Shown piece by piece: positions 33,732-38,600 of a stretch of 50,410 bases of DNA (the first letter of the stretch is position 1; the number at the start of each line of letters is the position of its first letter). The stretch is from Parvularia atlantis. Its lineage: Eukaryota. The notes beneath the pieces were generated by a model that worked only from the letters and a program-made list of their open reading frames with translations, was not told where the DNA came from and ran no database searches. The stretch lies in NCBI GenBank assembly GCA_943704415.1, contig CALSCO010001240.1:1-50410 (forward strand), written 5' to 3'. The translations under genes were made by a program, and so were the position numbers.

Positions 33732-35462
33732 TCACACCGACGCCATCGCCAGCACGGCCGCGACCGCGCCTGCCAGCGCCACGGCCAGCGCGCCCCACGG
33801 CATCGCCGACGCCGCGGCCCTGCTCGTGTTGCCGCCGCCGTTGCCGCCGTTGTTGTTGCCGCCGGACGACGTCGGCCGGTTGCTCGGGAAGCCGCTCGGC
33901 TGGCCCGACGGCACATCCGACGGCGCCAGCGACGGCGGGAAGGTCGGCACGGCCGTCGTGGGCGTGGGCGGCATGGTCGGAATGAGGTCGGGCGAGCTCG
34001 GCGGGTACGTCTGAAGGCGCGTCAGCCCGTGTGTGTCGATCAGTGCAAACGAGCAGGCGCACCTGGTTGCCCGCGTAGATAAACGCGACGGCGTTGCCCA
34101 GCGTCGTGTAGGCGTTGAGGTAGCCGTTGTATGTCGTCAGGCCCCACTGAATGTTGCTCTGGCGCACCGATCAGCACGCGCGCACGCAGACGCACGAGGG
34201 CGCACGCACCAGATACAGCTCGACCTGGACCTTTTGCGTCGCGGCGTAGTTGATAAAGTCCTGTGCGACGTGCCGTGAGCGACCGTGCGACCTCGCAAGG
34301 GAAGCAAGTCGACGGCACCTGCAGGTTCTGCGGCGCGGCGGTGACGAGCGTCGTCGCGTCGATCTGGATCGTCGTGACCTTGAGCCGCGCGAGGTTGAAG
34401 AGGCTGTTGGTGAACCGGAAGACGGCCTGGGTCGCATTCATGCCTGCGCGTCGGGCTCAGCACAAGTACGGCATGTCTTGTGCGCGCGCACCGTAGTACT
34501 GGATCAGCGACGAGTCCGAGATCCACACGTTGACGTTCTGCACGGCGTTGGCGAACGACACGCCCGGCGTGACCTTCATCTCGGCGAGCGAGTTGAGCTC
34601 GTGGATGACAAAGCCGCGGAACGAGGTCGCGTTGAGCTGGCGCGTCATAATCACGCTCGTGTTGACCAGCGTCCCGTGGAAGTACTGGTAGCCACGCTCG
34701 TAGAACGTGCCGGGCGGGTACGAGATGTTGGCGGCCTGCGTTCGCACCCGTCAGCAGTGCTGAGACTGTCACGGCGCGCGCGCACCTCAACGCGCAGGTT
34801 GCACGTGATGCCGTTCTGCACCGCGTAGCGGCACAGCTCGACGTTCTGGCTGCTGGCGATGAGCACGTCGGTCGCCTGCCGTTGCGGTCAGTGCCGGCGC
34901 GAGAGGACGGTCGGGCACGCACCTGGCTCACAGTGATCGACAGCAGCGCGCCTGCGAGCGCCTTCATCTCGTCGATGATCTGCCGGCGCCGCGCGTCAGC
35001 AGTCGTTGCGGTCGCAGGCAGGCGGTGCACGCACGTAGTAGCCGAACGGCCGCGTGTTGTTGTTGGCGTCGGTGTAGGGGTAGCGGAAGACGTCGCCAAA
35101 GTACGACGGCATGACAAAGTTGAGCGGGACCGGGTTGCCCCAGACGGACCACCACCTGGCGGGGCAGCCGCCGTCAGACGAGAGCACGAGGCACGGGGGG
35201 ACCGGGCGCACGCACTGCGGGACGTAGGAGTAGAACGTGCGGAGCTGGTCCATGGCCTCGGCCGTGTTGGTCAGGAAGAAGGGCGAGACGTAGGCGCGCG
35301 GGTCGAGCACGACGGCACTAGGGCGGATCACGTCGGCGGCATGGCTCGCGTCTGTCGGGCGCGGTGAGGACGTGCTGTGACCGCGCGCACACACGGCGAC
35401 GTACGTGCGAGCAGCAGGGCGCCGATCACGGCCGCGCAAACGAGGCGCTGGGTGTGGGCCAT
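33732..35462 (-). CDS. Secreted, probably GPI-anchored protein with a putative TIM-barrel-like domain and P/S/T stalk
   Basis: Signal-like start MAHTQRLVCAAVIGALLLA; about 10 exons that appear to splice in frame; PTxxPS-rich linker; hydrophobic C-terminus WGALAVALAGAVAAVLAMASV*. Confidence 0.75.
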
Positions 35463-35644: not shown

Positions 35645-35662
35645 GGGGGGGGGGGGGGGGGG
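35645..35662 (+). repeat. G18 homopolymer between the divergent GPI-protein and IP3R-like genes
   Basis: 18 consecutive G directly before the first recognisable IP3R-like codons. Confidence 0.9.
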
Positions 35663-38600
35663 CAACAGAACTTTTTCAGCCTCGCGCAGCAGACCCGCGG
35701 CCTGGCCAACACGTACAAAATCGAGATCGAGTCGTGCATCGCGGTGCTCTTCCGCCTGTTTGAGACGTTCAAGATCGGTGCGCGCCACTGCCGCCGCCCA
35801 ACGACGTCGGGCAAACTGTGCCGCGGCGCACAGCCATCGGTTCGGGCCTGGACTCGGACGTGCCTGCGTTCCTCGAGAAGCGCCACCACACGAACCGGGT
35901 GCGTGAGAAGAGTCGTGTCCTGCCGCTGCGCGCGCTCAGACGCGGCCGTCGCGGCGCGCAGGCGATCAACACGTTCTTCGAGAACTGGCGCACGCGCAAG
36001 GGTGCGGCCGACAAGATGACGGCGTCGCGCAAGCTCTCGCAGTCGACGGTGCGCGCTGCGCCGTGCCTGGCCGCGAAGAACTGAGCACGGCGCGCAGATC
36101 GAGCTGCAAAACAGCATCGCGTCGCACCTCGGGCCGTTCTTTGAGCAGATGGAGCGCGACAACATGCCCATGATCGAGACCGGTGCGCCGCGGCGCTGCC
36201 CCTCGCCTGCCGACGCTGACAACGGAGGAGCCGCGCAGAGCGTGCGGTGCTCGTGGACGTCGTGCACCACTCGGCGCGCCTGTACTCGATGGACGCGACG
36301 GTCACGGACTCGCCGCTGCTGCTGCACCACAACTCGGGCGGCAAGGTGCGTGCTGGCGTAGTGCGCCGGCGGGCTTGACGGATGACGATGTGTGCGCGCA
36401 GGTCGGGGCGGCGCCGTCGTCGGGTGCGCTCATCGGCAAACTGGTCAAGCATGTGCGCTCGAAGCACTACGACAAGAAAGTGCGCACGACAACGCGAGTG
36501 CGCACGGCGGTTCTCACATGCACACGCGCAGTGGAAGCTCGAGCTGCTGTCGATCTTCTTGCGCATGATGACCGCGAGCACGCTCAGCGACGACGCTGCC
36601 ACGCTCAAGCAGTATGAGTTGGTGCGTGCGCGTACGCTGTGCATGGGGGGCGATGCGGACGGCCGCTGAACGACGGCGCGTGCATGCGCAGGACAAGTAC
36701 TTTGGGCGGTCGCGCATGTCGTGGGCGATCGACGTGCGCGCGATCCAGGACGAGCTGGACCAGTGCGGCGTGTCGGACCTGGTGATCGACCTCGCGTCCA
36801 GCAAGGACGACCGTGCGCGCTGCCTCGCGGCTCAGGCGGACGCTGACCCCGGCGCGCGTGCGCAGCGATGGTCTTTGTCGAGTCGATCCGCCTGGGCATC
36901 GCGCTGCTGGACGGCGGCAACACGACCGTGCAAAAGTCGTTCTTCGAGCGGTTCTCGTCCGGCACGGCGAGCGACTTTTTCAAGAACATCCAACGGCGGA
37001 TGCAGGAGAGCATGCAGGAGATGGAGTCGACCGTGGCCGTCAAGTCGTCCGACAAGCGCGGCACGGGTGCGCAGTGCGCCCTGCTGTGTGCGCCGCCGCT
37101 CATCGATCGCCGCGACGCCAGCGGGCTCGACCGAGTCGGCCAGCGTGCGCGCAACGCGCAACTCGCTCAAGCTGACGGACGACTTCAAGACGATGCAGCT
37201 GATCCTGCGCTTCCTGCAGCTGCTGTGTGAGAACCACAACGTCGACCTGCAGGCAAGCGCGCGTCCTCTGATCGCGGACGGTGCTGATGCACGCGCGCCG
37301 GCAGCTCACGCTACTCAAGAACAACCTTGTGCAGCAGACGCTCGCGTACCTGGACTACGTCTGCGCGAGCGCAATCGCTGGCGTGAGCGTGACGACGCTG
37401 CTCAAGTGCGCATGGCATTCGGGGCCGCGTGCGTGTGCTGACGCCCGGCGCAGCTCCGAGGCGCGCGTCAACCTCATTATCCAGTGCCTGACGACGCTGA
37501 CCGAGTACTGCCAGGGCCCGTGTCGCGAGAACCAGGTGCGCGACGAGCCTCACCGCCGCGGAGACCGCTGCTTACGACGACGTCCGGTGCAGGACTGCGT
37601 GGCGACGCATGACTGCCACGCGTTTGAGCTGTCCAACAACATCATCAACGTCGACCTGGGCATGCTGTCGACGCCGCTGCCAAAGTCGGCGGACGGGCTT
37701 TCGCGGCTCGTGTCGTTCCTGCAGGTCAAGGTGCGTGCGTGGCCGACGCCGAGGTCAGCCGGCACGCTGACCGCTGCGCCAGAACAACGTGTGCAAGTTC
37801 CTGCTCAGCGTGATCGAGAGCCGCGCGCCTCACGAGATCCCGGACAAGCTCGTGTACAACATCGACCTGATTGCACTGGTGCGCACGCGGGCATGCGCGC
37901 ACGGCGCGCGCACGGCTTAGCTTGTCGCGCTGCCGTACGCAGAGCAAGACGATCAAGCTGGTGCACCGCCTGCACTCGAGCGAAGTCTTCGTGGTCGAGG
38001 CCAACCACGACACGGTGGAGCAGGTCGCCTACGAGCTCGGCCAGAACCTGTTCCTGCTCGCGACGCAGCTCAGCAAGACCTCGGCCGACCGGCACGACAG
38101 CATTCACGCCGACTCGGACGTGTCGCTCAAGTACTACGCGTCGCTGACGGGGTGCGCCGAGTGCCGTCCGCGCGCGCGTGGGTCTCACGAGGAGCGCGCA
38201 GGACGATCGAGCTCGTGCGCAAGGGCCGGCTCGAGCAAATCAGCTTCCCGATCCCGTACGTGTGCCAGTTCCTGACGGACGAGTCCAAGACAGACATCAT
38301 CGAGAACTCGAAGCGCGACGAGCAGGGTGCGTGCGTGTGCGCGCGCCCGTGAGCACCGGGCTGCCTGCTGAGCGTGACACGCGCGCGCGCGCCCTCAGGG
38401 TCCAAGATCCCGCACTTTTTTGCGCGCATGGGCGAGCTGTACAGCGAGATGAAGTGGCAGAATCGGCTGCGCAAGTGGAAGGAGGTTTGTGGCGCGCAGG
38501 GCTCTGGCCCCCGCCTGACCCACCGCGCGGCGGGGCGCAGCTGTCGTGGCTGGCGCGGCACATCTCGACGTGGAAGGTGATCGCATTCTACGCCTCGGTC

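Follow-up and report, generated by a model that had tools for sequence, protein, structure and literature searches.

Permuted glycosidase barrels and dead glycosidase barrels are each known already. Family GH70 is circularly permuted relative to GH13: its barrel starts at alpha3-beta4 and ends with beta3, and permutation through duplication has been proposed for it (PMC4919382). GH70 is a natural glycosidase-barrel permutation at nearly the same place as the one reported here. It is however an unrelated family, bacterial and active, whereas in the present protein alpha3 stays C-terminal and the likely acid/base is lost. In the GH18 chi-lectins (TCLL, concanavalin B, YKL-39 and IDGF-2) the beta4 Glu and beta6 Tyr positions are changed, as here (PMC3662789). 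The chi-lectins are not permuted, and the present family is without a GH18 sequence match; the first Asp of the GH18 DxxDxDxE motif is His in the related bacterial family and Val, Ala or Thr in the permuted sequences. Cwp19 (GHL10) and the C-terminal barrel of PgaB/BpsB are cell-surface barrels with a beta4 Asp, but they have the canonical order, 10-14% identity and no Pfam match.

The closest system is a bacterial barrel family (10YV-like), to which the present protein is homologous over all eight strands after rotation. The two differ in that strands beta4 to beta8 here precede beta1 to beta3, the beta4 Glu is replaced by Arg and the beta6 M-A-Y motif is lost. Introns, a stalk and a GPI-type tail are likewise present in this gene, unlike the bacterial family. 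Literature searches, mostly of open-access text, returned no description of a permuted member or of this family, no relevant mention of PDB 10YV or of both motifs, and no paper pairing 'circularly permuted' with GH18.

Gene structure and protein layout

The gene lies on the minus strand of a 50,410-nt Parvularia atlantis contig (the whole stretch analysed, hereafter the window), with its ATG at 35462 and its stop codon ending at 33732. Nine GT-AG introns of 47-60 nt each interrupt it, and the spliced open reading frame of 1257 nt encodes 418 aa. Its features are as follows.

33732..35462, minus strand: whole gene, 10 exons, 418 aa (open reading frame and splice joints)
35462-35405, 35351-35216, 35155-35035, 34979-34923 and 34875-34786, minus strand: exons 1 to 5
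34735-34492, 34443-34319, 34260-34210, 34158-34063 and 34010-33732, minus strand: exons 6 to 10
35338..35462, minus strand: predicted signal peptide, aa 1-24, split by intron 1 (hydropathy)
34810..35319, minus strand: segment A, aa 31-146, beta4, beta5 and beta6 with helices of the bacterial barrel, here N-terminal
35296..35304, minus strand: D36-P37-R38, aligned with the bacterial beta4 D-x-E; the Asp is retained and Arg stands in for the Glu
34574..34809, minus strand: segment B, aa 147-208, beta7 (E154 kept), FYxxG motif, beta8 (H199 kept) and alpha8
34538..34573, minus strand: linker, aa 209-220, connecting alpha8 (old C-terminus) with beta1 (old N-terminus), all in exon 6
34063..34537, minus strand: segment C, aa 221-326, beta1, beta2, beta3 and alpha3, the bacterial N-terminus, here last
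33825..34010, minus strand: Pro/Ser/Thr/Gly/Asn-rich stalk, aa 327-388, 47% P+S+T
33735..33824, minus strand: predicted GPI signal, aa ~389-418, small residues followed by a hydrophobic tail without charges, no cytosolic residues

The gene had been described in advance as intronised, and the contig data agree: all nine splice joints were found in contigs of public runs X2 and/or X3 (8/9 in each; the runs are presumed to be RNA). Two joints were found in X7 and one in X8, while runs X4-X6 yielded short pieces only. GC3 was 0.94 in the gene and 0.95 in a Pumilio exon stretch, and the coding differences in run X3 were at third positions in 11/11 cases, with a single residue change (E137D). The similar GC3 and the third-position differences indicate a native, constrained gene. 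No second copy of the gene was found in the window.

The window is eukaryotic, at approximately 68% G+C and with short introns. Pfam domains in neighbouring genes comprised RNA polymerase Rpb2, START, Pumilio, an IP3-receptor-like channel and ARPC2. A gene at 21021-22523 carries two E2F/DP winged-helix domains, as arranged in atypical E2F7/8-type factors. The window is possibly mis-joined at a G run (35647-35666): of two contigs in run X1, one ends at 35655, whereas the other begins at 35647 and is preceded by different sequence. The IP3-receptor-like gene has a contig in X2 that continues, before 35666, into sequence not found in the stretch compared. That gene, to the right, has RIH_assoc and Ion_trans domains only; it is possibly incomplete and might not be a genuine neighbour.

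From its hydrophobic N-terminus the protein passes into a core of 300 residues and then a Pro/Ser/Thr stalk, and it ends in a hydrophobic tail that carries no charge and reaches the stop codon. The signal peptide is likely cut after A-S-H-A. The C-terminal tail has a mean hydropathy of 2.4-2.6 and no charged residue among the last 25 in 4/4 full-length sequences (see below); an N-terminal hydrophobic signal was found in 3/4 of these, P0124 being the one without. A GPI anchor and its omega site are predictions, which the anatomy fits.

The bacterial barrel family and the strand order

The preliminary description had named a bacterial glycoside-hydrolase-like family with its motifs in the order C-A-B. 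Such a family exists, with at least 137 stretches of bacterial genomes matching its motif, and has that order. Twenty-eight single-barrel bacterial proteins were aligned (alignment A1), and the A1 profile matched PDB 10YV, the sole deposited structure of the family, at E 2.1e-29. This entry is titled 'Putative GH97 from Cellulomonas fimi', and the GH97 label comes only from the depositors' title: there was no GH97 match in Pfam and no GH97 row among the fold matches listed for a bacterial member's model. A1 matched no Pfam family above chance, with GH18 in 0/28 of its members (E up to 0.1), and NCBIfam gave no model for the four family members tested. Many family records are labelled 'amidase' or 'hypothetical protein'. 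The structure model of the bacterial member (pLDDT 92.6) has eight strands. Its best fold match was Cwp19 (Z 19.5, rmsd 3.6, 245 aligned), followed by GH5, GH164 and GH18 (Z 17.3-17.6), all within approximately 2 Z units; chi-lectin folds were also among its top matches.

Secreted or surface-bound forms of the family carry SLH, CWB2 or Ig domains. At several Bacillota loci (scanned for 78/166 neighbouring ORFs, in the flanks of L001, L004, L011, L024, L049 and L057) the barrel gene is next to GT2, HEAT-repeat, receiver, GGDEF, UDP-glucose dehydrogenase or phosphoglucomutase genes. These neighbours suggest an exopolysaccharide role for the bacterial family, and the cluster looks like an undescribed c-di-GMP-controlled exopolysaccharide locus; a literature search on this gene cluster returned nothing. 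A subgroup from Acidobacteriota, Gemmatimonadota and Bacteroidota-like genomes (L017, L023, L064, L080, L162 and L163) is marked by an insertion of 60-80 residues between beta7 and beta8. One barrel gene (G004:C16:28439-29294) is broken into three pieces with stops, in a genome with 11 matches.

The spliced product contains all of the motifs on which the preliminary description relied, running A (31-110), B (137-204), C (223-299). Its central claim, that the protein is circularly permuted relative to the bacterial family, was borne out by profile matches in swapped order. A first profile built from 32 barrels gave two matches on the spliced protein with the order swapped, and rotation of the protein joined both into one match of 22.8 bits, compared with 2.3 bits for the best of 60 shuffles over all cuts. 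A native-order profile of 62 non-redundant barrels placed HMM positions 98-262 at aa 32-208 and positions 23-77 at aa 253-309. When the alignment was itself rotated, the best of 56 rotations was the cut between alpha3 and beta4, which gave a single domain spanning aa 32-309. The rotated profile scored 34.4 bits (E 7.9e-13 for one comparison), against 6.6 bits for the best of 1000 shuffles and -2.5 bits for the reversed sequence. An hhalign comparison of five sequences with the rotated 62-row alignment gave 97.5% (E 5.5e-12, 245 columns). In the reverse search, family members were top-ranked among 2149 bacterial ORFs, again in swapped order.

Segments were also searched separately. Segments B and C, scoring 19.5 and 13.0 bits respectively (0/1000 shuffles each), hit the same family in swapped positions, segment B corresponding to the C-terminal end of the bacterial barrel. 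The D-x-R call lies in segment A; this segment was weak alone with the main profile (2.1 bits; 16/1000 shuffles) and reached 11.4 bits (best shuffle 7.7) with an actinobacterial sub-profile chosen after inspection. Sub-profiles of beta1-alpha1 and beta6-alpha6 gave no match when used alone. A broader 76-row profile scored lower, at 16-18 plus 5-7 bits, with the matches not joined. When three relatives were compared with A1 by hhalign, the result was only 57.8% (E 1e-4), covering A and B only. Identity to bacterial members is 11-23% (alignment A7), and 16/44 well-conserved family positions are identical.

Relatives were sought with exon 6 against 1.84 billion representatives, which returned 2 proteins (E up to 0.001); a profile from these 2 proteins gave 4 relatives among 7997 scored candidates. 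Three of them, P0121, P0123 and P0124, have 428-442 aa, share the order, stalk and tail of the window's protein and show 58, 63 and 59% identity with its core, respectively. The fourth, P0122, is a 159-aa fragment of 46% identity whose likeness stops at the position of the window's intron 6, likely through intron read-through. The linker length is unchanged in P0121-P0124, and the shared anatomy points to these relatives being eukaryotic.

Other searches were uninformative. Pfam returned 0 families for P0121 and P0122 (E up to 1), GH18 included, and exon-level searches of Pfam and NCBIfam gave nothing usable. A word-indexed protein search with exon 6 gave 0/57 candidates, and the ESM Atlas gave a best value of 0.80 for the exon query and none for P0121. 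A STAT3 match in the PDB sequence search (E 0.002, 42 residues) was taken as chance, and PDB sequence searches otherwise gave no useful match. Among metagenome contigs 0/340 and 0/182 pattern matches were relatives, among viral contigs 0/6 and 0/24, and among plasmids none, in scans that introns weaken.

A structure model of the 63%-identical relative P0123 has the barrel that was predicted, with eight strands in the predicted order, a core pLDDT mostly of 80-96 and a stalk under 50, the stalk being predicted disordered. It matched a broad range of TIM barrels (best Z 15.7, rmsd 3.5, 214 aligned). Fold lists for the permuted model comprised barrels of all kinds, as is expected for matches out of register; GH97 and GH18 were absent or low in them, which carries no weight as evidence. 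Of the 53 rows in the folding alignment, 49 were bacterial stretches in permuted order and 3 were relatives. Because these bacterial rows entered the alignment already permuted, the model is a statement of compatibility and not independent proof.

The swap could in principle be an artefact of barrel self-similarity, of a chimera of unrelated halves, of mis-splicing or of mis-assembly. The scores are modest (20-35 bits), the family was chosen from the preliminary description and segment A is weak alone, all of which favour this explanation. Against it, segment profiles run on the rest of their own barrels scored at most 5.6 bits, so that barrel self-similarity does not account for the swap, and the alignment is continuous once rotated. 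The alpha8-beta1 junction lies inside exon 6, and therefore exon order, splicing or assembly error cannot make the swap; the junction is also contained in single contigs of runs X1, X2, X3 and X8. Four independent relatives have the identical junction. An artefact is accordingly considered highly improbable, and the strand order beta4-5-6-7-8-1-2-3 is held with high confidence to be a circular permutation of the bacterial family.

Active-site residues and predicted surface function

The beta4 Asp, beta4 Glu and beta6 Tyr were present in 27/27 single-barrel bacterial members (found by profile and not by motif), and the beta7 Glu in 13/27. This set of Asp, Glu and Tyr corresponds to the catalytic positions of GH18 as identified in hevamine and TCLL; in the chi-lectin TCLL all three of these positions are changed (PMC3662789). 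By this analogy the beta4 Glu and beta6 Tyr are likely catalytic in the bacterial family. The window's protein had been described as having its LDxEP acid replaced by LDPRA. This holds for the Glu, replaced by R38, but not for the Asp, which is kept as D36. All four full-length eukaryote-type sequences have D-x-R at beta4 and S-I/V-T in place of the bacterial beta6 M-A-Y, with Ile or Thr at the Tyr position in 4/4. D108 and E109 were considered as acids newly acquired where beta6 ends, and this was rejected, as profile alignment and model place them on helix alpha5.

Residues D36, E154, H199, D228, D264, W225, W299 and cysteines 139 and 149 are kept in the relatives, and R152 and D/E200 are also kept across the covering sequences (46-63% identity). 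Surface helices and the start of the stalk are conserved as much as the cleft.

On balance, and with moderate confidence, the gene product is read as a surface-anchored permuted barrel that is likely a glycan-binding pseudo-enzyme. A glycan-binding surface protein is the best reading since the beta4 and beta6 changes are those of the GH18 chi-lectins. The protein would be secreted and GPI-anchored, with the stalk holding the barrel off the membrane; the barrel would close normally because the 12-residue linker joins the old ends. The cleft, keeping D36, E154, H199, D228, D264 and several Trp/Tyr residues, would still bind sugar, and the ligand would most likely be an amino-sugar polymer, as for GH18-like barrels.

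D36, E154 and H199 are, however, kept wherever covered, as they would be in an enzyme too. The permuted barrel could still be a surface glycosidase or transglycosylase using another catalytic pair, either Asp36 (beta4) with Glu154 (beta7) or Asp36 with Arg38/His199, and acting in cell-coat remodelling or in digestion of prey or biofilm polymers. Retention of D36, R152, E154, H199, D/E200, D228 and D264 at 46-63% identity favours this alternative. GPI-anchored glycosidases on stalks are also common in fungi and protists. GH5, GH42 and PgaB use a beta4/beta7 acid pair, and an Asp-Arg pair has been conjectured for Cwp19 (PMC5765458). The GH70 barrel, permuted at nearly the same place, stays active (PMC4919382). 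Weighing against catalysis, the beta4 Glu and beta6 Tyr that are invariant in the bacterial members are both lost and the beta7 Glu is variable among them; an Arg two residues past the Asp would moreover tend to pair with it. We regard a retained enzyme as rather unlikely, though a substantial alternative.

A further possibility is that sugar binding has been lost and the barrel serves as a coat module with a structural or protein-binding role, as in xylanase-inhibitor or narbonin-type GH18 derivatives. The low number of identical well-conserved family positions, a stem of ~6.8 changes per column to the bacterial family and the even conservation of surface helices, stalk start and cleft would fit such a module. 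At the C-terminal ends of the strands, polar and aromatic residues are nevertheless retained, which suggests a maintained cleft, and a coat module is considered improbable.

Origin of the permutation

Permuted members were sought in 301, 301, 251, 401 and 93 genomes from five phyla, the set of 401 consisting of small genomes of ~1 Mb and large Pseudomonadota, Cyanobacteria and Myxococcota not being knowingly covered. Among 53 distinct bacterial members found by profile in the five phyla, 51 had the canonical order, 1 was a tandem, 1 was of undetermined order and 0 were permuted. Tandem two-barrel proteins are common in Bacillota. In a Bacillota set picked by a motif requiring one intact barrel, and made up of related cases, the beta4 Glu was absent from the first barrel in 12/27 tandems (Lys, Gln or Arg instead) and from the second in 0/27. 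The beta7 Glu of the first barrel was replaced by Asn in 22/27, and the second barrel was intact in 27/27. A degenerate first and an intact second barrel likely form a binding-plus-catalytic pair. Tandems with a degenerate first barrel include L069, L077, L044, L051, L030, L050 and L195:955-3147, and one independent tandem (L195) has D-x-R.

The inner stretch of the tandems is colinear with the eukaryote-type proteins. Together with the existence of tandem precursors, this makes permutation by duplication, as put forward for GH70, the likely route. A bacterial-type barrel gene would have been duplicated in tandem and the outer parts then lost, with introns, signal peptide and GPI tail gained then or later. 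Transfer from bacteria is plausible from the distribution.

Candidate sources were considered and set aside. First barrels of the Bacillota tandems lost the beta7 Glu that the window's protein keeps, so those tandems are not the direct source. Two other candidates seemed suggestive on visual inspection but scored weakly. An actinobacterial donor (L153-L161) reached only 68% by hhalign and is given no placement by the tree, and a donor near the D-x-R tandem L195, which lies outside the tree, reached 5 bits only. In this quick tree (79 rows) the four sequences formed one group on the stem given above, with no sister group.

A more specific reading would derive the permuted pseudo-enzyme from a bacterial exopolysaccharide-processing tandem gene acquired by a microbial eukaryote lineage and make it a surface receptor for the bacterial polymer that the parent enzyme cuts, as a prey or biofilm lectin; this is viewed as doubtful. 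In its account of the origin, beta4-beta8 of an already dead first barrel and beta1-beta3 of the second would have been retained, a step held to be equally doubtful.

The protein represents a clean natural example of a permuted glycosidase barrel that has lost the likely catalytic residue, and tandem proteins with the precursor architecture persist in bacteria. Such proteins are invisible to ordinary annotation, neither Pfam and NCBIfam nor the PDB sequence and ESM Atlas searches having returned a usable match; there is no Pfam or NCBIfam model for the family. If a bacterial polymer is bound, the protein would be a testable candidate for prey or surface recognition by a protist, and its ligand would help identify what the bacterial family acts on.
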